From Escherichia coli (GTDB taxonomy: Bacteria; Pseudomonadota; Gammaproteobacteria; Enterobacterales; Enterobacteriaceae), in assembly GCF_003018255.1 (NCBI RefSeq), contig NZ_CP027440.1: DNA of 64,000 nucleotides. One strand, given 5' to 3'. The position numbers and the translations under genes were made by a program. Of the stretch, positions 1 to 12,435 are shown in pieces (positions within the stretch are counted from its first letter, which is position 1; each line of letters starts with the position of its first letter). The notes beneath the pieces are model-generated. The model was not told where the DNA came from. It worked only from the letters and a program-made list of their open reading frames with translations, and searched no databases.

Positions 1-512
1 TGTTTAATCTCCTGGCATTCTTCAGGAATACCCCCTTTTATTTCCCTGCCATAAGCGCCTACTTTAAACACCACGCACAGGGCATCACGGGAGAGCGACG
101 GGGTCCACCAGGAGTCCATGTTAAACATGGAGGGGATTCTCATTACCCCCAGCTTTTCACAGAGCCAGACAAGGAAATCAGGACGCTTTCTTAACTCGCG
201 TTCAGCGGCTTCAATCATTGCGGCAATCGCCGGTCCTTCAGGGCATGACTCATCAGGTCTGGCAATAAAGCACGGTCCGTCCCCGATAAAAGCCACATCA
301 TCGCGCTTACGCCAGCCCGCAGGCAGAGCACCAGAAAAATAAAACTCACTGATTACGTCCATGGCAAACGGCTTTAAGCGCAATCCGGCAGCGCCTGTAT
401 TTTTCAGTAATGCCCGAAGAATACTGTTGCGTAGCGGTAAAACAGTCTGTTGATATTTGGTGAAATATTTATTTGTCTGCACACGGTCTAATTTGAAATA
501 AAAATATGCCAT
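1..512 (-). CDS. hypothetical phage early protein, N-terminal ~170 codons only (3' end beyond window)
   Basis: Hand translation: ATG at 512-510 preceded by AAGGAACAGG Shine-Dalgarno; frame stays open to position 1. Not in the ORF track because it has no stop in the window. No family recognised. Confidence 0.45.
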   Translation of the reverse strand, partial: MAYFYFKLDRVQTNKYFTKYQQTVLPLRNSILRALLKNTGAAGLRLKPFAMDVISEFYFSGALPAGWRKRDDVAFIGDGPCFIARPDESCPEGPAIAAMIEAAERELRKRPDFLVWLCEKLGVMRIPSMFNMDSWWTPSLSRDALCVVFKVGAYGREIKGGIPEECQEIK

Positions 513-609
513 ATATCCTGTTCCTTATTTTCAGTTTACAGGCGCAGGCAGTCCCCTGACGCGAGCGCCATACTTAAAACGATGTGATATTTAAAGATTT
601 AATGCGGTG

Positions 610-1140
610 TTATTTATTCAGTCCGGCGTCCTGTTCAAAAGGCTCGACATAAAAACTTTCAGCGCCTTTATTCACCTTAATACCGGCAATGCCTTTCACT
701 GCATCCGGCTCCGCCAGGACCGCTTCCTTGTTCACTTCCTCTTTCGTGCGGATGAATCGCTCAAGCCCCATACGGCGCAGCATTTCAATCACACCTTCCA
801 CATCACGGCTGACGCTGCATGATGGATTTCCCAGCCGCCATGATACTGTTCCGGTGGTCAGATTGGCTGTTTTGGTTTTGCCGCCGTTCGTCAGCTCATC
901 GCGGTTGGTTTTGCACCAGTCCTGAATCCCCTTAAAAAGCACTTTGATTTCTTTTTTAAGGTTTTCAATCTGCGGCGTATAACGGGCGGTGATTTCTGCC
1001 ACTTCATCATTCATCGCCGTTTCCAGCCGCAGCGCCTCTCGCTGAATATCGCCCAGGGTACGGATATCGCGGCTGACTTCTTCGCGGGTCTGCGGTGCAG
1101 CCTCGGCTGCGGCCTTTAATTTTGTAACACGTTTAGCCAT
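610..1140 (-). CDS. gam: Gam-like host-nuclease inhibitor (Mu Gam family)
   Basis: 176 aa ORF; sequence (LETAMNDEVAEIT...NRDELTNGGKTKTANL...FIRTKEEVNKEA) closely parallels Mu Gam as recalled; AAGGA RBS upstream of ATG at 1140. Confidence 0.85.
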   Translation of the reverse strand: MAKRVTKLKAAAEAAPQTREEVSRDIRTLGDIQREALRLETAMNDEVAEITARYTPQIENLKKEIKVLFKGIQDWCKTNRDELTNGGKTKTANLTTGTVSWRLGNPSCSVSRDVEGVIEMLRRMGLERFIRTKEEVNKEAVLAEPDAVKGIAGIKVNKGAESFYVEPFEQDAGLNK

Positions 1141-1151
1141 TTTGTTTTTCC

Positions 1152-1445
1152 TTATTGCAGTGTGCCTGATGCTTTATGCACGCGGTGGCGTTTAATGATG
1201 GCATCCGCCCCAAAAGCCTGTACAGATGCCTGAAATTCCGCTGAGAGAAACTGAATAATTTCAGGACTGTGATACTGGAGAATACTTGCATAAACGTCAC
1301 AGAGTGACGTCGGCCTGTTATTCGTATCACGTTCTGTTTTTACATCCACACCAATCTTTTCATGCACTTCAACACAGTCATTGCCTGCCGGTTTTTCGTC
1401 ATGCGAAACATGCTTAAATTCAAAAATAACGCGTACTTTGCTCAT
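1152..1445 (-). CDS. hypothetical small protein (paralog A of a tandem pair)
   Basis: ORF track 1152..1472; likely start is the internal ATG at 1445 (MSKVRVIFEFKHV...) with AGGGG RBS; shares N-terminal motif and a C-terminal segment with the adjacent ORF. Confidence 0.5.
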   Translation of the reverse strand: MSKVRVIFEFKHVSHDEKPAGNDCVEVHEKIGVDVKTERDTNNRPTSLCDVYASILQYHSPEIIQFLSAEFQASVQAFGADAIIKRHRVHKASGTLQ

Positions 1446-1449
1446 GGAA

Positions 1450-1722
1450 TTACCCCTGCTGATTAAATTCATTACCTTTAATAACCCCGGAACGCATGCT
1501 CATATCTTTCATGAGCGCACTGGCTTTCATTGCCACAAGTTCAGCAAAGTCTCTGCTTTCCGCGAGCATAACCACCCCAAAAATCATGGCGGGTCCATCA
1601 CCTTTCTGCTTTATCCCGGTTGAACGTATGTCCAGACTTACCCCCATGCGCACTGTTCCATCAGCGTTTTTATGGATAACGTGCTCCTTGTATTCGAAAA
1701 TAATGCGTACGACTTTACTCAT
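1450..1722 (-). CDS. hypothetical small protein (paralog B of a tandem pair)
   Basis: 90 aa ORF starting MSKVVRIIFEYKEHV; GAGGA RBS; stop overlaps start of the next gene (4 bp), consistent with translational coupling in the early operon. Confidence 0.5.
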   Translation of the reverse strand: MSKVVRIIFEYKEHVIHKNADGTVRMGVSLDIRSTGIKQKGDGPAMIFGVVMLAESRDFAELVAMKASALMKDMSMRSGVIKGNEFNQQG

Positions 1723-2000
1723 CCTCTGGTCCTCGTTCTGTTTGGATAACTGACCCGGCGTCTGACCTCACGGCAGAACCGAATCATGGCATTAAAGGCT
1801 TCTTCCTCCGTCACCGCTTCCGGTATCCCCGGAACCAGTAACTGCTCCTGTTCATCACGTCCATGACGCGCCATAACCTCAATCACATGCCGTACCGTGG
1901 CAGGCTTTCCGGCAACTATCGGCAATGCACCTTCCGGCAGGACGTAACCAAACTCAATAAGACCACTCGACCACGCCCATGCAATGAGATTTTTTTTCAC
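1719..2000 (-). CDS. hypothetical small early protein (GTG start)
   Basis: 93 aa ORF in the tightly packed minus-strand operon; first codon is GTG; no recognisable family. Confidence 0.4.
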   Translation of the reverse strand: MKKNLIAWAWSSGLIEFGYVLPEGALPIVAGKPATVRHVIEVMARHGRDEQEQLLVPGIPEAVTEEEAFNAMIRFCREVRRRVSYPNRTRTRG

Positions 2001-2001
2001 C

Positions 2002-2256
2002 TCACACCTCCCAGTAAACCGTGCAGCCGCTGATGCGGGTGGCCTTCACACGGCGGCGCAGGCCGTTGGTCTGTATGGTGATTTCAATTTCACCGGTTCC
2101 CTGCACGTTGCCTACCGGCGGCGTGGTTTTCAGTGCAAAACGTTGCGGATAGCGCTTACTGCGTTCCAGTACCGCACCGGCAAGTTCGGTCAGACGGCGC
2201 GCGCTGTTCAGGGAGTCGAATAAATTCATTTTGTTACCGCAGGATTGCATATTCAT
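2002..2256 (-). CDS. hypothetical small early protein
   Basis: ORF track 2002..2268; ATG at 2256 has a GAGGTG RBS so is the preferred start; no recognisable family. Confidence 0.4.
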   Translation of the reverse strand: MNMQSCGNKMNLFDSLNSARRLTELAGAVLERSKRYPQRFALKTTPPVGNVQGTGEIEITIQTNGLRRRVKATRISGCTVYWEV

Positions 2257-2268
2257 ATAACACCTCAT

Positions 2269-2490
2269 TTAGCTGACTTGTTTCGCACCAACAGAACGGC
2301 ATATTCCGCTGTAAACGTCTGTCGCACCTTCGCGATCAAGTCCGGCAGATATCACCATTCGTGTGCGGTCATTAAATTCAAAAAGAAAATCGCCACATTC
2401 TTTATTTTCGGCCAGTGAAATCACCTTCACGTTATCGAAATTAACCAGGTAAAAGCGTCCGTAAATATCAGGAATATTAAATACCGCCAT
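2269..2490 (-). CDS. small early protein in the position of Mu kil (73-75 aa)
   Basis: ORF 2269..2496 immediately after the B homolog with a GTGA/TGA start-stop overlap; ATG at 2490 has an AGGTG RBS. Kil assignment is by position and size only. Confidence 0.4.
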   Translation of the reverse strand: MAVFNIPDIYGRFYLVNFDNVKVISLAENKECGDFLFEFNDRTRMVISAGLDREGATDVYSGICRSVGAKQVS

Positions 2491-2492
2491 AA

Positions 2493-3425
2493 TCACACCT
2501 GTGAGAGTAATTCAGGGTTGGTATAAACCTCTTTAAAGGCCGCATTAATATGTTTTTCTGTCAGCGCCGCGCCTTCACCGCTGGCGGTGAGCCACGCCTG
2601 GTTAAGCGTATGTGTCAGAACGCGTAACGCTCCCGGCTTTTCAGCGATAGCCTGCATGACGGCCAGCTCGGCCTCACCACTGATCCCCCACGCCCTGGCA
2701 ATGGCCAGCACATCCGCCTTTTTGGCCTTGCGAAGTTGTTTTGTACGGGCAAGACGGCTGAACAGGCGCGATAAATCATCAAAGGCGCGGCGTCCACCTT
2801 TAAACAATCCGCGCGGGTTACCAATAAGCACCATCCCGATCCCCGTGGCGTCCTGAATTGCCCGGAGTTGCTCCAGACCGTCAATACCAAGATGATCCGC
2901 CTCATCCACAATCACCAGTCCACGCGTTCCCATCAGGCGACGGCGGATGGCGCGGGATAATGCCCCTTTGTTCGCGCGGGTGTAATCAATCCCCAGCGCA
3001 TCGGCCAGCTCCAGCAGACACTCCGTGACGCTGGAGTGCGCGGGTGACAGGGTGATCATCCAGGTGTTTGGTTGCTCCTGGCAGTAATTACGGGCAGTGG
3101 CCGTTTTACCCACACCCGGTACGCCCACAATAACGTTAATACAGCCCATCAGACGAACCGCCTGAAACAGTGCGCGCAGCTCCTGGACTGTCTGCGTTTC
3201 CACAAACTGCGGCGGTTCCGGCAGTGCGCTTTGTTTATTCCAGTTCTCATACCAGGAACGCAGGGAAGCAGCCACAGCAGCGTTATCGCCTTTATATTTT
3301 CCCTTACGGAAAGCCGATAATGTGCCGTCGGAAATTCCCGCCTCTCTGGCGATGGCATACTGCGTCAGTACGCCGCCATCAATAAGTTCATCAATGGTCT
3401 TGATTACATCGTTAATATCAGTCAT
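2493..3425 (-). CDS. MuB-like transposition ATPase
   Basis: 310 aa; Walker A GVPGVGKT, and extended similarity to Mu B as recalled (PEPPQFVETQTV, LVIVDEADHL, KPGALR). Confidence 0.9.
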   Translation of the reverse strand: MTDINDVIKTIDELIDGGVLTQYAIAREAGISDGTLSAFRKGKYKGDNAAVAASLRSWYENWNKQSALPEPPQFVETQTVQELRALFQAVRLMGCINVIVGVPGVGKTATARNYCQEQPNTWMITLSPAHSSVTECLLELADALGIDYTRANKGALSRAIRRRLMGTRGLVIVDEADHLGIDGLEQLRAIQDATGIGMVLIGNPRGLFKGGRRAFDDLSRLFSRLARTKQLRKAKKADVLAIARAWGISGEAELAVMQAIAEKPGALRVLTHTLNQAWLTASGEGAALTEKHINAAFKEVYTNPELLSQV

Positions 3426-3496
3426 ATTATTAACCTCTCATTTGATACCTTGTTTAATCAAATAACCTGAGTCGCCGCTCGGGTTATTTTTTTATT

Positions 3497-5587
3497 TCAG
3501 GCCAGCGGGTCATTTTCTTTTAATTTCGCTTCCAGCAACTGCAATCCCCGCTGGAAATTACGCTCGTATTCTTCATCAGGTTCATCGTCAGCGACCGGTT
3601 GCTGAACGGTCACCGTATTACCCACAGGGCGGTATATGTTTTCCAGCCAGGGCTCCTGCGGCTTGTGCTCCAGCACGTTGACAACCTCATCCTCGGCATC
3701 ACGGATTTTTTCCTCTGCGCGTTTACGCATGCCTTTAAGGCGTTGCTGCTGTTTGTAGTATTCCGCGCTAACCGGGAAGGCTTCGCGTTTATTACCGTCC
3801 CATACCGCCTCGCAAATCACGCTGCCATCCAGGCGACGTACGGTAATTCGTTCGGCATCATGAATGTCATAGCTGATAAGCACCTTACGACCATGCTCGT
3901 CACGCAGCTCGGGCGCGTAGTAAATATTATTCAGCCAGCGTATTTCACAGCGTCTTACAGGGCGTTCCACCATCGGCCGGAACATATCCCGCAGCTCAAC
4001 ATCGGACAGCCATTCAATTTCCGTGTCCTCTTCCGCCAGGCGTTTTTTTCTGAACTCCGCCGGGCTGTAATGCTTGCCGTTCGGCTTCACCGGTAATTCA
4101 TCGTGCGGCCGGTTGTTGTACCACTCAACACCGTCACGAATGGCATCAATCAGTTCAGACCAGGACGGTAAATCACGCATCGCTGACTGCTGCCGGGCGT
4201 TCAGCCGTTTGCCCTGTTGCAGGGCAGTAAATGCCGAGCGTAAATCGCGGTTGGTTTTGCGTAACGTCTCGCGATCTGCACCTTTCCCGAAATAGGTGCG
4301 GTATTTACGGGCTATGCGCATCGGTAATGTGCGGTTAAGCCGTTCGATAATGCCTCGTCCCTGCGGATTACCGGCAATCCCGGTCGGGTGATTAATCCCC
4401 AGTCGCGGCAGTATCCCCACAACCTCCTTATCCAGGATGTCGGCGGTTTCCCCGGAGCCGTTATCCGAGTAATACAGAAACGGTTTGCCGTGATGGCGAA
4501 TGCCGTGCTGTATGGCACCGGCTACGGCGAAAACATTTTCAGCCAGGTCAAGGCTCCAGCCCACCACAAAGCGCGTGCCACCGTCGATAACAAAGGTCAC
4601 TTCCGGTGCAAATGGCCGACCGTGAACCGGGTGTGCGCATTTCAGCTTCATGCCGTGACCGTCACCAATCCAGACATAATTCACCGGCATTCTGGACCAG
4701 TCGCGGCGCGTGAATCCCTCAAGCTGGCGGTATTCACTGCCGGTCACCCGGCCTTTTTGTTTCACCACTTCCGGCAGTTTCTTCATTGCGCGGCGAATGG
4801 TGTCATAAGACGGCATGATATCGAGCATATAAGGCTCATCAGCGTGCCGGTGCTGCCATTCAGCGACAAAATCCTCGTAAGCCTCGGTCATTGGTCGGCC
4901 GTTTGACTGGCGATACTGCGCCAGAAATTCGGGCAGCCAGTTAATATCTTCAGCTTTTATTTCCTGGCGCTTACCCGGTGCCAGTAAAAGCAGGCGTTCA
5001 GCGGCGTTCTGCGCCTTGTTAAAGGCCGCAATCCAGCGTTTCAGCGTTATTTCACTCAACGCACGGCTGTTTCCCTTTTTGGCGTTCGCCGTCTCAACCA
5101 TTGCCACAATGCGCTCGTCCAGTTGCGAACGTGCCAGGTTGTCAACGATAAACCGGATAGCTTTCGCACAGCTGAAACCGGGTTGTTGCGCGACTTTCAT
5201 CACTTCGCTGACGATCGCAATTCGTGCATCAGCCACCTGGCGCTGGTTTTCAGTCAGGGCATTAAGGCGTTCAACCATCAGTTGTGGTGATCCGCGATAT
5301 GCCTCCACCGCATCAACCACGGCAGGCGAGCGTCTGGCCTTTGTCACCACCGGAGCCGGTGATTCATCAGCTTTTTGCGTCATCAGTTGAAGGGCATAAC
5401 GTTCACGCAATACTTGTTGCGCGCCAGAAGGCAAACAATCGATATTAAATTCGATTGCTTTTGTCCCCTTACGTTTGCGTAACATGGCTGCATTTCCCGC
5501 AGCTGCTTTTGTGAGTCGATGGCGAATGTTATGTTCCATCATTGGTAAATCAGGAAGACCAACACATTCTTTTGCTGTTACCCACAT
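3497..5587 (-). CDS. MuA-like DDE transposase
   Basis: 696 aa; N-terminus MWVTAKECVGLPDLP parallels Mu A MELWVSPKECANLPGLP; candidate catalytic D-D-E residues in WIGDGHG, YYSDNGSGE and GIIERLN; GGGGGA RBS. Confidence 0.9.
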   Translation of the reverse strand: MWVTAKECVGLPDLPMMEHNIRHRLTKAAAGNAAMLRKRKGTKAIEFNIDCLPSGAQQVLRERYALQLMTQKADESPAPVVTKARRSPAVVDAVEAYRGSPQLMVERLNALTENQRQVADARIAIVSEVMKVAQQPGFSCAKAIRFIVDNLARSQLDERIVAMVETANAKKGNSRALSEITLKRWIAAFNKAQNAAERLLLLAPGKRQEIKAEDINWLPEFLAQYRQSNGRPMTEAYEDFVAEWQHRHADEPYMLDIMPSYDTIRRAMKKLPEVVKQKGRVTGSEYRQLEGFTRRDWSRMPVNYVWIGDGHGMKLKCAHPVHGRPFAPEVTFVIDGGTRFVVGWSLDLAENVFAVAGAIQHGIRHHGKPFLYYSDNGSGETADILDKEVVGILPRLGINHPTGIAGNPQGRGIIERLNRTLPMRIARKYRTYFGKGADRETLRKTNRDLRSAFTALQQGKRLNARQQSAMRDLPSWSELIDAIRDGVEWYNNRPHDELPVKPNGKHYSPAEFRKKRLAEEDTEIEWLSDVELRDMFRPMVERPVRRCEIRWLNNIYYAPELRDEHGRKVLISYDIHDAERITVRRLDGSVICEAVWDGNKREAFPVSAEYYKQQQRLKGMRKRAEEKIRDAEDEVVNVLEHKPQEPWLENIYRPVGNTVTVQQPVADDEPDEEYERNFQRGLQLLEAKLKENDPLA

Positions 5588-5597
5588 ACATCCCCCA

Positions 5598-5864
5598 TCA
5601 AGCCACTTCTCTGGCGTCCACCTGGTATCTGCTGGGCCAGATTACAGCAGGTTCAACCCCTATTTTTTCGGCGATGGCGGCTTCGTATTTACGGCACTGG
5701 CGGTAAAACACATTGCGCATTGATCCGCTTTTTAATCCTAACTCCCTTTCCAGTTCAGGGAGGTCTGTGCCTTTGTTTTCAAGGGCTGCATATACCGCTT
5801 TAGCAGACCAGTCACACCCCTCTCGAACAAACAAATTATTCGATGCTTGTCTGGATACCCTCAT
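5598..5864 (-). CDS. Ner-like DNA-binding regulator
   Basis: 88 aa; C-terminal VIWPSRYQ and overall alignment to Mu Ner as recalled; AGAGGA RBS; first gene of the early operon. Confidence 0.8.
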   Translation of the reverse strand: MRVSRQASNNLFVREGCDWSAKAVYAALENKGTDLPELERELGLKSGSMRNVFYRQCRKYEAAIAEKIGVEPAVIWPSRYQVDAREVA

Positions 5865-6020
5865 TGTGTGATCCTCTCATGTTTACCTGAACCGATAATC
5901 AAAACCGGTTATCGATTTAGGTAAATCATAATCGCAAAATAATTCGATATCAACGGTTTTTTGCGAGCATATCGAAATTAAATGCGATGTCGATAATTTC
6001 TTTGTTTTATAGGGGGTTAT
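5865..6020. promoter_or_regulatory. divergent immunity/early control region (operators and promoters between ner and repressor)
   Basis: 156 bp AT-rich intergenic region between divergent genes with at least five copies of a CGATA/TATCG half-site (e.g. CGATAA at 5893 and 5991, TTATCG at 5909) in direct and inverted orientation. Confidence 0.55.
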
Positions 6021-6632
6021 ATGGATAAGGCAGAAAAAACCGTATCCAGTGCGGAACGGTTTATTGATATGGAAGGAATAAACCGATTTTCAGAACGCTT
6101 AGCTATGGCTATGGGAAACATGACAAACGTCGAACTGGCGACCCTTTGTGGACTATCTGAAGCCACAGTAAGAAATTACAGGAAGGGGAAAAACTTCCCT
6201 CCTTTGGATAAACTGGCCTTAATAGCTAAAGCCTGTAATTGTTCACTCGAATGGTTGGCCACAGGCAAGAACGAAGATGAATGCGGAAAAATCGAAAACA
6301 ATTGCGATTCAGGTTCGGGTATTGATCAGGCGCTTAGCTCTCTAAGCCCCCAAGAGAAGCAATTAATCCTTACATTCATCAGGCGAGAAGGTACTAATAA
6401 CCTTGTCAGGCTGGCAGCAATGAATACATCTACAATCAGCCAGGATGCGGTAGAAAGCATCATTGATGCCTTGCCATTACGTCCCGTACTAAAAAATGCA
6501 ATAAAGATAGGAATGGCGGGAAGTGAAGAAACAGACAAAGAGATTTTGCGCGTTATTGAGAAGTACAACTCGAGCAATAACGCCACCCAGGAATCAGGGG
6601 CAGTGACAGTAAAGAAAAATGTTGTTGGTTAA
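6021..6632 (+). CDS. prophage repressor, cI/XRE-type helix-turn-helix
   Basis: 203 aa; N-terminal HTH (ELATLCGLSEATVRNYRKGKNFPPLDKLALIAKACNCSLEWL); transcribed divergently from ner toward the prophage end as in Mu c; AGGGGG RBS. Not similar to Mu c itself. Confidence 0.7.
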   Translation: MDKAEKTVSSAERFIDMEGINRFSERLAMAMGNMTNVELATLCGLSEATVRNYRKGKNFPPLDKLALIAKACNCSLEWLATGKNEDECGKIENNCDSGSGIDQALSSLSPQEKQLILTFIRREGTNNLVRLAAMNTSTISQDAVESIIDALPLRPVLKNAIKIGMAGSEETDKEILRVIEKYNSSNNATQESGAVTVKKNVVG

Positions 6633-6776
6633 GCGCCATCGCTATCATGAGGTGGTGCTGTAAATACATATAGAGATCATATGACTCATCCCAAGATAAT
6701 CACGCTATTGAATAGTAATTCATGATGATTATCATACTGATTATAGTTAGATCGATTATGTGAGCATTTTGGCAGT

Positions 6777-6810
6777 TTGAAGATGTTTTGAAGATGTTTT
6801 GAAGAAGATT
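6777..6810. repeat. tandem direct repeats (TTGAAGATGTT x2 plus a variant) in attL, candidate internal transposase-binding sites
   Basis: Seen directly: TTGAAGATGTT TTGAAGATGTT TTGAAGAAGATT about 100-135 bp from the inferred end, similar spacing to Mu L2/L3. Confidence 0.45.
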
Positions 6811-6890
6811 TTAAGGGTAAATTAGCAGTATCAAATGTGTCGCCGTTTTTTGATCTTTTGACTATTTGTTGAGCAGTCGGTATCAAAAAG

Positions 6891-6912
6891 AGTTTTCCGT
6901 CCGAAGTATACA
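6891..6912. repeat. terminal transposase-binding site and prophage left end
   Basis: Reverse complement TGTATACTTCGGACGGAAAACT resembles the Mu terminal site (TGTAT...ACGAAAA) and ends in the TG/CA dinucleotide. Confidence 0.5.
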
Positions 6913-6981
6913 TCACCTGTTTTATTTCAGCATCTTACAGGTGATTTCACCTCCTTTCACTAAAACCCTTGTCGGTATCAA

Positions 6982-7311
6982 ATGATTCACCTGGTTACAA
7001 ACGATGGATTGATTGATAACCTGCCACAAGGATGTTGCGTGGAAGTAGCCTGTCTGGTTGATGCTAATGGCATTCAGCCGACCAAAGTCGGTACGTTACC
7101 TTCGCATCTGGCCGCCCTGATGCAAACCAACATCAACGTACAGACGCTGCTGACCGAAGCCATTCTTACGGAAAATCGCGACCGTGTTTACCACGCTGCG
7201 ATGATGGACCCGCATACTGCCGCCGTGCTGGGCATTGATGAAATATATGCTCTTGTTGACGACCTGATTGCCGCCCACGGCGACTGGCTGCCAGGCTGGT
7301 TGCACCGTTAA
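6982..7311 (+). pseudogene. melA: melA 3' fragment (alpha-galactosidase, glycoside hydrolase family 4 C-terminus)
   Basis: 109 aa ORF with GH4 C-terminal motifs (NDGLIDNLP...VEVACLVD...MMDPHTAA); in-frame stop 7 codons upstream at 6961, so the 5' part of the gene is absent. Confidence 0.6.
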
Positions 7312-7958
7312 GGGGTAATCGCTTCCGGCGCTCTGGTGATTAAGCCAAAGCGCCGTAGCTGGCGGCAATGAAAGCGAGCGAGGAATATCACCGTCGTTAA
7401 TGCGCCAAGCAGCGCGCAGAACATATCGGATTGCGTGTCCCACTGGTCGCCCTGGGTGCCGAGAAAATCATCCGCTCCCTGACCCATTGCCAGCGCCGCC
7501 CACCACTCGATTAATTCATACATCGCGCTTATCGCCAGCGCCACGCAGCAGACCAGAAACGCCACCATCTTATGTCCGTGAACGTACATCCCGCGCACAA
7601 GGATCTCTCGTGCCACCAGTGCAGGCACCAGCCCCTGGAAAAAATGTCCCAGTTTGTCATACGGATTACGGCTCAACCCCAGCCATTCCTGCACCTCAAA
7701 ACCAACGGGGACTTTCGCGTAGGTGTATTGTCCGCCGACCATCAGGATGATGGCGTGAAAGAAAATGAGCGTATAGAGCAGCGGCGTTAACGGATAACGT
7801 TTAGCGGTGGCAAGCAGTAGCGGCACGACAATAATCACCGGTGTCACTTCCATCAGCCAGGTGAGTTTGTCATTGGCCGAAATGCCGGTATAAATCAGGA
7901 TTAACGTTAGCGCCAGTGCGCCGGTGTTAAGAATTAACGGCTTGAGTGTGCGGGTCAT
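7308..7958 (-). CDS. yjdF: inner membrane protein YjdF
   Basis: 216 aa hydrophobic ORF in the K-12 position next to fumB. Confidence 0.75.
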   Translation of the reverse strand: MTRTLKPLILNTGALALTLILIYTGISANDKLTWLMEVTPVIIVVPLLLATAKRYPLTPLLYTLIFFHAIILMVGGQYTYAKVPVGFEVQEWLGLSRNPYDKLGHFFQGLVPALVAREILVRGMYVHGHKMVAFLVCCVALAISAMYELIEWWAALAMGQGADDFLGTQGDQWDTQSDMFCALLGALTTVIFLARFHCRQLRRFGLITRAPEAITP

Positions 7959-8080
7959 GGTGAGTTCGCAAGTCAGGGAAAATACTGACTATTGACCAGT
8001 AAGCGTGAAATTACAATCGCAAAAGAGGTGGCCCAGGGGGATCACCTGGCAGCATGCTGCCAGGCGCTGGGCCGAAGAGG

Positions 8081-9727
8081 TTACTTAGTGCAGTTCGCGC
8101 ACTGTTTGTTGACGATTTGCTGGAAGAAGTCGTTACCTTTGTCATCGACCAGGATAAACGCCGGGAAATCTTCTACTTCGATTTTCCAGATAGCTTCCAT
8201 ACCCAGCTCCGGATAAGCGACGCATTCCAGATGCTTGATGCTCTGCTGCGCCAGTACCGCCGCCGGACCGCCGATACTACCGAGGTAGAAGCCGCCATGT
8301 TTATGACACGCGTCGGTAACCTGCTGACTGCGGTTACCTTTCGCCAGCATGATCATGCTGCCGCCGTGGGATTGCAGCAGATCCACGTAGGAGTCCATAC
8401 GACCTGCGGTGGTTGGGCCAAGTGAACCTGATGGATAACCGGCAGGGGTTTTCGCCGGACCCGCGTAGTAGATCGGGTGATCTTTGATGTACTGCGGCAG
8501 TTCTTTACCGGCGTCAATCAGCTCTTTCAGCTTGGCGTGTGCAATATCTCGGCCCACGATAATGGTGCCGGTGAGCGACAAACGAGTGGAAACCGGATAT
8601 TGCGAAAGCTGGGCGAGGATCTCTTTCATCGGGCGGTTAAGGTCGACCTTCACCGCTTCGCCTTCACCGGCCTGGCGCAGTTCTTGTGGAATGTACTGGC
8701 CTGGATTGCGTTCCAGCTTTTCGATCCAGATACCTTCGCGGTTGATTTTCGCTTTAATGTTACGGTCAGCGGAGCAGGAGACGCCCATGCCTACCGGGCA
8801 GGATGCACCGTGACGCGGCAGACGGATAACGCGAATATCGTGCGCGAAGTATTTACCACCAAACTGCGCGCCAAGACCGAGTTTCTGGGCCTCTTCCAGC
8901 AGTTCCTGTTCCAGCTGGACATCGCGGAACGCCTGACCATGTTCGTTCCCTTCCGTCGGCAGTTCATCGTAATAGTGGGCGCTTGCTAACTTGACGGTTT
9001 TCAGGTTGGTTTCCGCAGACGTACCGCCAATCACAAACGCGATATGGTACGGCGGGCAAGCTGCCGTACCGAGGGTACGCATTTTCTCGACGAGGAAGTT
9101 TTTCAGTTTGCCGGGCGTCAGCAGGGCTTTGGTTTCCTGGTAGAGATACGTTTTGTTGGCAGAGCCGCCGCCTTTCGCAACGCAAAGGAATTTGTACTCA
9201 TCGCCATCTACCGCGTACAGGTCGATTTGCGCAGGCAGGTTCGTGCCGGTGTTGACCTCTTTATACATGTCCAGCGGCGCGTTCTGTGAATAGCGCAGGT
9301 TATCTTCGATATAGGTGTTATAGACACCTTTCGACAGTGCTTCTTCATCACCGCCACCGGTCCACACGCGCTGGCCTTTTTTACCGACGATGATCGCGGT
9401 GCCGGTATCCTGGCAGGTCGGCAGCACGCCTTTGGCGGCGATTTCGGAGTTTCTTAAGAATTGCAGCGCCACGTACTTGTCGTTTTCGCTGGCTTCTGGA
9501 TCGTGAAGAATAGCCGCAACCTGTTTCTGGTGTGCTGGGCGGAGCATGAAAGAAGCGTCGTGAAAGGCTTGCTGCGCCAGCAGGGTCAGGGCTTCTGGTT
9601 CCACTTTCAGGATGGTTTCGCCGTCGAAGTCGGCAACGCTAACGTAATCGGAAGTGAGTAGATAGTATTCGGTATTGTCTTTCCCCATCGGGAAAGGTGC
9701 CTGGTAGATAAAGGGTTTGTTTGACAT
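8081..9727 (-). CDS. fumB: class I fumarate hydratase (anaerobic)
   Basis: 548 aa; recognised sequence and synteny. Confidence 0.9.
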
Positions 9728-9804
9728 AGCTTCCAGCCTGTAACTCTGTATTTGTTATTCGAAAATGGCGTGCCGCGTAGTCACGGGCGGCACGCAAAGT
9801 GCAT

Positions 9805-11145
9805 TTATAAGAACCCGTACATCGCGGCGAAGATCCAGCCGAAGACGCACGATACGCTCACACCAATCAACCCCGGCAGAATAAAGCTGTGGTTGATGAC
9901 GAAGCGACCGATGTGGGTGGTGCCGGAACGGTCAAACTGAATCGCTGCCAGATCGCTCGGATAAGTCGGCAGGATGTAATAACCGTAGCAAGCCGGTGCT
10001 GAAGCCACGATGTATGCCGGATCAACGCCGATCGCCAGCGCGACCGGAACAATCGCCGCCAGCGCCGCAGCCTGAGAGTTTACAAACTTGGAAACCAGCA
10101 GCAGAACAATGGCATAGGCCCACGGATACTCTTTCACCATTTCGCCCAGTACGCCCTGAATTTCAGACATATGCGCACCGAACATGGTTTCAGCCATCCA
10201 TGCGATACCGTACACCGCCACGATGGCGATCATACCGGAACGGAAGACTTCGTTTTTTGAGATAGACGCGGGATTGGTTTTGGTCAGGATAATAATCAGC
10301 GCCCCGGTCAGCAGCATAAACATCTGAATAACCAGTACCATCGACAGCGGTTTGCCACCGAAGGATGGACGCAGGTCCGAATCAGCACCAAGAAGTGCGA
10401 CTACAGCGATTGCCCCGAGGAAGATCCACATTGCAAGCCAGTTGCTTTTCGGCAGTTTTTTATCGAGCAGCGTCGCGGTATCACCGTAAACATACTCACG
10501 GTTTTCCGGTATGGAGATGAATTTCTGGAACTCTTCGTCTTTATCCAGATCTTTACCGCGGAACCAGCTGAAGATACCGATCGCCAGGATACCGATTAAC
10601 GTCGATGGAATGGTGATTGCCAGCAGGTCGAGGAACTCAAGATGGCGACCATCAAAGGTGACATTACCCAGCATCGCAACCAGAGACACGACTGCAACCG
10701 ACACCGGACTGGCGATAATCCCCATCTGTGCACCGATAGAACTTGCCGCCATCGGGCGTTCCGGACGGATGTTGTTCTTAATGGCGACGTCGTAGATGAT
10801 CGGCAGAATGGTGTAAACCACATGACCCGTACCGCAAAGAATGGTCAGCGTACAGGTCACAAACGGCGCGACAATTGAGACATATTTCGGGTTGCGGCGC
10901 AGCAGCTTCTCGGCAATTTGCAGCATGACATCAAGACCGCCCGAAGCTTGCAAGGTCGCCGATGCTGCCACCACCGCAATGATAACCAGCATGACATCAA
11001 CCGGTGGTTTACCTGGCTGAAGGTGGAAGACGAAGACCAGAATGACCAGACCGATACCGCCTAATAAACCCAGCGCGATACCACCCTTTCTGGCACCATA
11101 AAACAGACATATCAGTATTATGATAAGTTGGATAGTAAATAACAT
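9805..11145 (-). CDS. dcuB: anaerobic C4-dicarboxylate transporter DcuB
   Basis: 446 aa polytopic membrane protein, paralog of the ORF at 27873; synteny with fumB and dcuRS. Confidence 0.9.
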
Positions 11146-11715
11146 GTGTGAACCCTCGCGATAATCCTATTTAAATTTTTGCTGAATAGATCACAGTCAC
11201 GTTCTGTTTTGTATGAACTGTTTTCAGAGCCTGACTAAATATCCGTTTGGTCGTTACCGGCTTGAGCAAATACCTCACAGTGAATATTGGCTGATTAAAG
11301 CAGCGGCAAATTTATGCACTGTGATAAGCGGCTTTTTCAGAGAGAAAAACTCTCTGGCGATGGGTTTATAGTTTGTACTGCGCAGATGTTAATGTTTTGT
11401 TTGCTGTTATCTTATTGATATTTATCGGTCTATTTTTTGTTCTCAGGGCAGATATCATTAGGTTTATAGATTAATCTGATCTACCCATTTGTGGGTAAAA
11501 ATACACATAATACGGGTGACATAATAGTTAATTAACTTTTGTTAGCGTTTTGAAATTAAAAACACCGTTCACCTGAAGAGATATTAATTTTTAGCGATGA
11601 TGGAGGGATAATTATATTTGATCTGGCACAAGTTTTACTGATGAAGGATGTAACTTGTGCCAGGGGTATTTTGCATTACAGTAATAATTATTACTTACAG
11701 ATAACCAGCGATCCG
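11146..11715. promoter_or_regulatory. dcuB upstream regulatory region
   Basis: 570 bp AT-rich non-coding region upstream of dcuB, as in K-12 where it carries the dcuB promoter; individual binding sites not mapped here. Confidence 0.4.
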
Positions 11716-12435
11716 TTATTGGCAATATTGTTTCAGTAGTGAGTAGTGTTCTGCCTGAATACGGTAACGGTAAACCGGACGCCCCGTGACGCCATAATGG
11801 ATACTGGTGAACAAGATGTGGCAGTTGACCAGCCAGATGAGGTATTTACGGCAGGAAACACGCGAAATGTTAACCTCGTTAGCCAGCTCGTCGGTTGAAA
11901 ACTCATAGTCCTGATGCGCGTCAATCCACTGACACAGCGTGCGTAACGTCTGCGGCGTTAAGCCTTTTGGCAAGCGACGAGGATCCTGCTCGTTGGAGCT
12001 GCTGCCGTGGATTAGCTGATCAAGCTCGGCCTGGTCATAATACTGATGTTTTTCCAGCGCCATTTTCTTTTGCCGCCAGCCGGTGAGCGCCTCTTCAAAG
12101 CGGGAAGCCTGGAAGGGTTTGATCAGGTAATCCACGACACCGTAATGCAGCGAATCTTTAATGGTTGCCGCATCGGCTGCGGAGGAGATGACAATCACAT
12201 CACTTTTGCAACGCGCGTTATGCAGGACAGGCAGTAAATCGAGCCCGTTCTCTTTTTGCATATAGATATCGAGCAATATCAGGTCGATAGGCGTATCGCT
12301 ATTGAAGATAATCTCTTTGGCTTTCTCCAGCGTCGAAGCCGTTCCACAGCATTGAAAGCCCGGGATTTGTGCCACGTATCGGCGATTCAGCTCCGCGACC
12401 ATTGCGTCGTCATCGATAATTAATACATTGATCAT
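11716..12435 (-). CDS. dcuR: response regulator DcuR
   Basis: 239 aa; receiver domain (LIIDDD...D) plus HTH; overlaps dcuS stop. Confidence 0.9.
   Translation of the reverse strand: MINVLIIDDDAMVAELNRRYVAQIPGFQCCGTASTLEKAKEIIFNSDTPIDLILLDIYMQKENGLDLLPVLHNARCKSDVIVISSAADAATIKDSLHYGVVDYLIKPFQASRFEEALTGWRQKKMALEKHQYYDQAELDQLIHGSSSNEQDPRRLPKGLTPQTLRTLCQWIDAHQDYEFSTDELANEVNISRVSCRKYLIWLVNCHILFTSIHYGVTGRPVYRYRIQAEHYSLLKQYCQ

Follow-up and report, generated by a model that had tools for sequence, protein, structure and literature searches.

Which element occupies the left edge of this stretch of Escherichia coli DNA, and at which base does it give way to the host? The window, that is the whole stretch of 64,000 nucleotides that was analysed (assembly GCF_003018255.1, contig NZ_CP027440.1), begins inside a block of phage genes which an earlier, sequence-only reading assigned to a Mu-like transposable prophage, as its left arm, with an immunity module unlike that of Mu and an end at position 6912. 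That interpretation is supported: the genes had been read correctly, whereas the end coordinate and the target bases had not. Positions 1-6999 are very probably the early (c-side, or 'left') arm of a Mu-like transposable prophage of the type of Sp18, a prophage of E. coli O157:H7 Sakai (NC_002695.2, 5040971-5079729), transposed into melA at codon 349. The element is already known, as a member of the Sp18-type family with an identical copy in public genomes.

The terminus can be placed by comparison with other copies of the same DNA. With positions 1-7400 as the megablast query, 34 of 5426 complete E. coli genomes had a near-full match, and in the 30 of these that were listed the match stops at 6999 or at most 6 bases past it, the excess arising by chance. 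Strain War is identical to the window over 6999/6999 bases. Strain E04, which is without the element, has an intact melA (L001, 2957-4312) whose sequence …GTCCGTAACGATGGATTG… aligns with the window from base 7000 (AACGATGG…), and base 6999 is an A where the matching melA position has a T. Because the sibling matches stop there, the melA gene of E04 aligns from 7000 and base 6999 differs from melA, the terminus is 6999. The element ends with …TTACA at 6995-6999 (…GGTTACA; full tip …CACCTGGTTACA-3'), with the usual CA at 6998-6999. An end displaced by one base is ruled out by the mismatch at 6999. The real end therefore lies 87 bases to the right of the position first proposed. Position 6910, almost coincident with 6912, is where identity to Sp18 rises abruptly to 96.7%; it is a mosaic breakpoint within the element, not the element end.

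Across the target site intact melA reads …GTCCGTAACGATGG…, and the insertion point falls exactly between codons 348 and 349. Outside the element, 7000-7311 on the plus strand is the 3' fragment of melA (codons 349-451 and the stop), as defined by alignment with the gene of E04. The open reading frame at 6982-7311 is chimeric and native only in appearance, its first 18 bases being the phage end and the remainder the melA fragment.

The end region itself (6826-6999) carries three candidate transposase-binding sites in addition to the terminal CA. A core, TTTGATAC(C/T)G, is found on the minus strand in three copies within the last 175 bp (6971-6982, 6876-6887 and approximately 6826-6837), and an exact 12-nt repeat, GTCGGTATCAAA, occurs in the same region with its copies 95 bp apart. 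One site is near the tip and two are about 110-175 bases inward, a spacing that resembles the layout of the L1 and L2-L3 sites in attL of Mu. At the other end of sibling copies the same core is also repeated three times; there the tip is TA, not CA.

The length of the target duplication is given by seven sibling insertions with simple flanks (L002 3486-3493 and 42326-42334; L004; L005/L006; L007/L008; L009/L010; L011/L012; L013/L014). In all seven, the four bases that follow …TTACA are repeated directly ahead of the other end, 5'-TATAGCGCGG; they are CTGG, GTTG, GGTG, TTTA, TATG, AAGG and CGTG. A match at the fifth base is seen in just one of the seven, which rules out a 5-bp duplication with an element starting ATAGCG. 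Moreover, the empty betT site, rebuilt with a single GTTG, is found ungapped over 196/196 bases in thousands of genomes. Duplications in the Sp18 family are therefore 4 bp long, and the tip at the S-end is TA. In the case of the window copy, the sequence-only reading had pointed to the five bases at 6913-6917; intact melA and the sibling pattern instead predict AACG at 7000-7003 as one copy of the 4-bp duplication, the other copy being outside the window. With this predicted AACG included, the fourth duplicated base is a purine in 8/8 sites. At the unseen junction melA GGCAACGTCCGTAACG would be joined to the S-end TATAGCGCGGCG, giving the AACG duplication; on the minus strand this end is predicted to read …AAAAAAATCGCCGCGCTATA, or 5'-TATAGCGCGGCG… when read inward. 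A separate case is E. coli 2010C-3347 (NZ_CP034806.1; L015 and L016), in which one prophage end is flanked by an Ig-like domain gene and the other by an unrelated DUF5682 gene, and the duplication is missing. Such ends point to a rearrangement involving two copies, or to an inversion or deletion that accompanied transposition.

Genes were called from six-frame open reading frames and assigned to families by PHROG and Pfam profile searches. All the early genes of the arm are on the minus strand except that of the repressor, on the plus strand, and their order is a divergent repressor gene, a control region, ner, A, B, five small genes and gam. This is the Mu early order that had been recognised from the sequence, and it holds, with PHROG E-values of 1e-28 to 1e-209; the A, B, Gam and Ner translations likewise match Mu-family transposition and early proteins, both in the profile searches and in comparison with the Mu proteins. 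The transposase A (3497-5587, 696 aa) is a MuA-like DDE enzyme (phrog_310, 4.8e-209; Pfam Mu-transpos_C, 3.5e-17, and HTH_Tnp_Mu_1, 1e-4) in which D309 and D375 align with the catalytic residues D269 and D336 of MuA. Its residues from about 59 to the end form a conserved Sp18-type body, and residues 1-58 a cassette-specific N-terminal DNA-binding segment. The adjacent B gene (2493-3425, 310 aa) encodes a MuB-like AAA+ target-capture ATPase (phrog_296, DNA transposition protein, 1.7e-109; Pfam Phage-MuB_C, 5.1e-25, and AAA_22, 9.6e-18) with both a Walker A (GVPGVGKT) and a Walker B (LVIVDE) motif. Ner (5598-5864, 88 aa; phrog_769, Ner-type repressor, 2.5e-28) is a small helix-turn-helix (HTH) regulator. 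The divergent gene (6021-6632, 203 aa) encodes an HTH repressor of the CI/XRE type (phrog_3037 'transcriptional repressor', 3.3e-59; Pfam Phage_CI_repr, 3.2e-9, and HTH_3, 1.4e-8), which has no similarity to the c repressor of Mu. The immunity module is indeed not that of Mu, as the earlier reading had it.

The five small genes downstream of B have homologues in Sp18 or in named families. The first (2269-2496) corresponds to ECs_4947 (phrog_3375, 1.9e-46). The second (2002-2268) is Kil-like, of the septation inhibitor family (phrog_2679 'Kil protein', 7.5e-46), and its product matches Mu Kil weakly (33% identity over 39 aa, E 2.7e-4). The third (1719-2000; phrog_1518, 9.4e-43) is the homologue of ECs_4949 in the Sakai annotation, and its family bears the label 'host nuclease inhibitor'. 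The fourth (1450-1722; phrog_4107, 4.6e-61) and fifth (1152-1472; phrog_2230, 1.7e-40) correspond to ECs_4950 and ECs_4951, respectively; for the fifth, the RefSeq annotation of strain War places the start later, equivalent to 1152-1445. A homologue of Gam follows (610-1140, 176 aa; phrog_491 'Mu Gam-like end protection', 4.7e-70), involved in DNA-end protection or inhibition of a host nuclease, and then a homologue of the early gene ECs_4953 (1-512; phrog_2260, 3.5e-68), cut by the window edge. The final 10 or so codons of this last gene lie to the left of the window, and its counterpart in strain War is the coding sequence at L002 35300-35842. Additional scans gave little: Rfam had zero matches in 1-7400 at E <= 0.1, PADLOC returned generic HTH matches and no defence system for the small genes and the repressor, and NCBIfam nothing at its curated cut-off.

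The relationship to Sp18 is close and strikingly uneven. Window positions 1-5461 are 97.99% identical to Sp18 over 5461 nt in one ungapped-like block, 5462-6824 has zero nucleotide similarity to it, and 6825-6999 is 81% identical, rising to 96.7% in the last 90 bp. Nucleotide identity and collinearity thus place the element in the Sp18 family, whereas the immunity region is not shared. The two elements have in common the order and lengths of the genes from A and B through Gam and the same end-site core motif, but differ in the length of the repressor gene and ner. At the protein level, A is 94% identical overall, whereas residues 1-58 of A are only 43% identical, the repressors 24% and the Ner proteins 33%. 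The sites also differ, since Sp18 is inserted in sorM of Sakai and the window element in melA. In the literature Sp18 itself figures as a Mu-like prophage, apparently intact, that is neither circularised nor inducible by mitomycin (PMC2669165). Sp18-like phages are found in lineages of Shiga toxin-producing E. coli (STEC) at variable sites, often within other prophages (PMC10132054, PMC7430833).

The remainder of the prophage can be read from the sibling copies, which measure approximately 38.8-39.0 kb; most of the prophage lies outside the window, as had been suspected. The complete 38.8-kb prophage of strain War (NZ_CP074717.1; L002 3490-42329), which matches the window including the immunity cassette, differs from the window copy only by its site, a lambdoid portal gene. 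It also encodes Mor, lysis genes, Mu-type head and contractile-tail genes, an invertase and Com/Mom. Late genes are thus present in identical sibling copies and belong to the part outside the window. Within the late region of the War prophage, RefSeq annotates a 'tRNA-OTHER' between head morphogenesis genes (L002 24379-24458). The same cassette-bearing DNA occurs in betT, siiEA, etk, a lambdoid portal gene and a plasmid. For family copies overall the sites are betT, siiEA, etk, the portal gene, sorM, an intergenic position near bssS, a position next to gabP, and a plasmid. The element has no fixed attachment site and is transposable.

The segment without counterpart in Sp18 (5462-6824) includes the first 45 to 58 or so codons of A, ner, a 156-bp control region, the repressor gene and about 190 bp from the repressor stop to the inner end sites. 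Of 5426 complete E. coli genomes, 33 carry it with at least 97% identity, and its position varies among them; the terminal 90 bp of the family occur in 232. Alleles were compared among six Sp18-family copies, that of the window included. From residue 59 to the end, A is 96.6-99.1% identical in every pair. Residues 1-58 (5414-5587) fall into three types that co-vary exactly with three types of Ner. The repressors, by comparison, are of five types, with 21-42% identity between types, and swap independently. The window alleles are the most divergent of each unit (A 1-58, Ner and repressor): the window repressor is 21-25% identical to those of the five other copies, and its Ner 33% identical to Ner of other family members. 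A different combination is seen in Sakai and STEC2018-607, which have ner, the control region and the N-terminal 49 or so codons of the repressor in common and differ in the rest of the repressor. It can be proposed from these patterns that 5462-6824 is a swappable immunity cassette and that the window element would be a variant heteroimmune to Sp18, in parallel with the Mu/D108 pair.

The cassette also contains candidate regulatory signals. The control region that separates ner from the divergent repressor gene (5865-6020), which has no similarity to the control region of Sp18, includes a leftward promoter-like candidate (-35 at 5953, -10 ending at 5925, 10/12 consensus matches) and two inverted repeats, 5882-5925 and 5931-5988, which may serve as operators. 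Between the repressor stop and the inner end sites, cassette-specific DNA also carries about three copies of an 11-bp tandem repeat, TTTGAAGATGT (6776-6815). The G+C content is 0.37-0.44 over 5500-7000, covering the cassette and the end, against 0.50-0.57 in the remaining arm and the host flank; the low value in the cassette fits a separate origin for it.

By analogy with the biology of Mu, the CI/XRE-type repressor, as the putative immunity determinant of this variant, would bind the inverted repeats in 5865-6020 and shut the leftward early promoter, and this repression would keep ner-A-B-kil-gam silent in the lysogen. On derepression or induction, A would assemble on the end sites, B would capture and deliver target DNA, and the genome would replicate by transposition. 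In this scheme Gam would protect DNA ends and the Kil-like gene would block division.

On the host side of the junction, the melA fragment is followed by yjdF, fumB, dcuB, dcuR and dcuS. The melibiose permease gene melB is absent, so that melA abuts yjdF directly, with stops overlapping at 7308-7311 (L001 4309-4312 in E04). This melB-less melA-yjdF arrangement is found in 1264 of 5413 complete E. coli genomes (23%) and is not that of K-12. Although not K-12-like, the flank belongs to the core chromosome of E. coli. The earlier statement that the phage block does not belong to the K-12 backbone holds insofar as related strains lack the element at this locus and melA is intact in E04, while the term 'K-12 backbone' is loose for a flank of this kind. 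Because melB is absent, the host was probably unable to take up melibiose even before the prophage cut melA. Over 7000-12000, identity reaches 99% or more in only 4 of the 5417 E. coli records that match, and is highest in strain E04 (99.7%); the small number of close matches indicates a host from a sparsely sampled lineage.

How secure is the assignment of 1-6999 to a prophage, and to a prophage of this type? Several points weigh against it. The window covers only about 18% of the prophage, so that neither the far junction nor the completeness of this copy can be seen. The third catalytic residue of A, E415, is assigned from its motif, and the automatic alignment did not place it. The repressor has no homology to the N-terminus of A, so that the rule of shared operator and enhancer recognition established for Mu may not apply. 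Finally, promoter and terminator consensus scans of 5500-7100 score no better than shuffles, and the operators and the promoter are candidates only. The first of these points bears most directly on the alternative that a defective remnant is present, the left arm alone surviving beside melA after deletion or rearrangement of the late region, and no longer a phage. The window begins inside the element with the remainder unseen; a second prophage end, a further prophage piece or the 5' part of melA was looked for elsewhere in the window and none was found; and the unrelated flanks in 2010C-3347 indicate that rearrangements do occur in the Sp18 family. On the other hand, 11/11 visible genes of the arm are intact and over all 6999 bases the arm is 100% identical to a copy that is complete at 38.8 kb, an identity that argues for recent acquisition. 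A remnant is therefore unlikely.

The junction at 6999/7000 could also be questioned as an assembly artefact that joined a prophage contig to the mel region. The melA insertion site was not seen by megablast in any of the 5426 E. coli genomes, neither the predicted S-end junction nor the observed c-end junction was found in genome contigs, and the c-end junction was not found in viral contigs; exact look-ups of the 109-aa product of the chimeric reading frame and of a predicted truncated MelA (residues 1-349 followed by V) likewise gave nothing, so that the junction at 6999/7000 is in none of the collections searched. However, the join falls exactly at the terminal CA where sibling copies end, a base that a random mis-join would not hit, and AACG fits the purine-at-fourth-position pattern; an artefact is thus very improbable. 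Still less credible is an insertion in melA of a phage very close to Mu or D108 (genus Muvirus) or of a Mu derivative made in the laboratory. The gene order equals that of the Mu left end, and Mu insertions in sugar genes are classic laboratory constructs. Against this, megablast of 50,697 phage records gave no match to Mu, A and MuA have only 23% identity, the repressor and Mu c are unrelated, and the element ends in TGTAACCAGGTG and Mu in TGTATTGATTCAC. The megablast result and the protein identities refute a Mu, D108 or laboratory origin. The early arm of an Sp18-type prophage inserted in melA accounts best for the locus.

The locus would thus record that a common Mu-like phage associated with STEC recently transposed into melA, in a host lineage already without melB. 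Its importance beyond annotation is slight, the prophage boundary being corrected to 6999. The 4-bp duplication, the TA tip and the modular cassettes of repressor, Ner and A N-terminus are modest family-level points for transposition geometry and the evolution of phage immunity; they concern a known family and not a new kind of element.

Comparison with Mu (NC_000929) shows both what is shared and what is not. The annotated early order, c / ner A B kil … gam, is the same, and a DDE transposase with Mu-transpos_C, a MuB-type ATPase and Gam are held in common. Identity to the Mu proteins, taken as only moderate in the earlier reading, is 22.6% for A, 48.3% for B, 57.1% over 175 aa for Gam and 37.5% for Ner, and the element is distinct from both Mu and D108. 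The MuA-type transposase, the adjacent MuB-type ATPase, the early order, the variable sites and the CA end with repeated sites make it a Mu-like transposable phage, whereas the lack of a megablast match to Mu, the low identity of A and the lack of a Mu c-type repressor place it outside the genus Muvirus (Mu, D108, SfMu). The c repressor and the transposase of Mu have an N-terminal DNA-binding domain in common (42% over 52 aa); the window repressor, in contrast, is of the CI/XRE type and has zero similarity to the N-terminus of its own A. The immunity swap extends into the 5' end of A, as it is reported to do between Mu and D108. Mu makes a 5-bp duplication and has CA tips, as against the 4 bp and the TA S-end tip of the Sp18 family. 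Duplication lengths of 5 bp for Mu and 6 bp for B3 have been reported (PMC8705779), whereas the literature searched contained no report of one of 4 bp in Mu-like phages of E. coli, nor of the TA tip.

Once Sp18-type inserts in records of Shiga toxin (Stx) phages are set aside, the only isolated phages with megablast-level similarity are vB_YpM_5 and vB_YpM_6 of Yersinia pestis. Their match is restricted to a segment of A, with 81.6% nucleotide identity over 1.46 kb (3601-5058). With the same exclusion, the nearest isolated relatives after this pair are transposable phages of Pseudomonas: VW-6B for A (47% identity, compared with about 30% to the DMS3/JBD group) and the DMS3/JBD group for the repressor. 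Indeed, the D3112/DMS3/JBD group has CI-like repressors at the same left-end position, with 44-46% identity over the HTH. The Pseudomonas phages are siphoviruses of another host genus and have no nucleotide similarity to the element, whereas B and Gam of the window and the late genes of the siblings are Mu-type myovirus genes. A broader reading, to which we would give slightly less than an even chance, is that the Sp18 family departs from Mu as a group in two respects for which the literature searched gave no precedent, the 4-bp stagger with the TA tip and immunity units that swap independently, with the alleles in the window the most divergent. In that case the N-terminal 58 or so residues of A would travel with Ner and not with the repressor, to which they have no homology, which suggests that the enhancer-like site of A is separate from the repressor operators, in a departure from the arrangement known in Mu.

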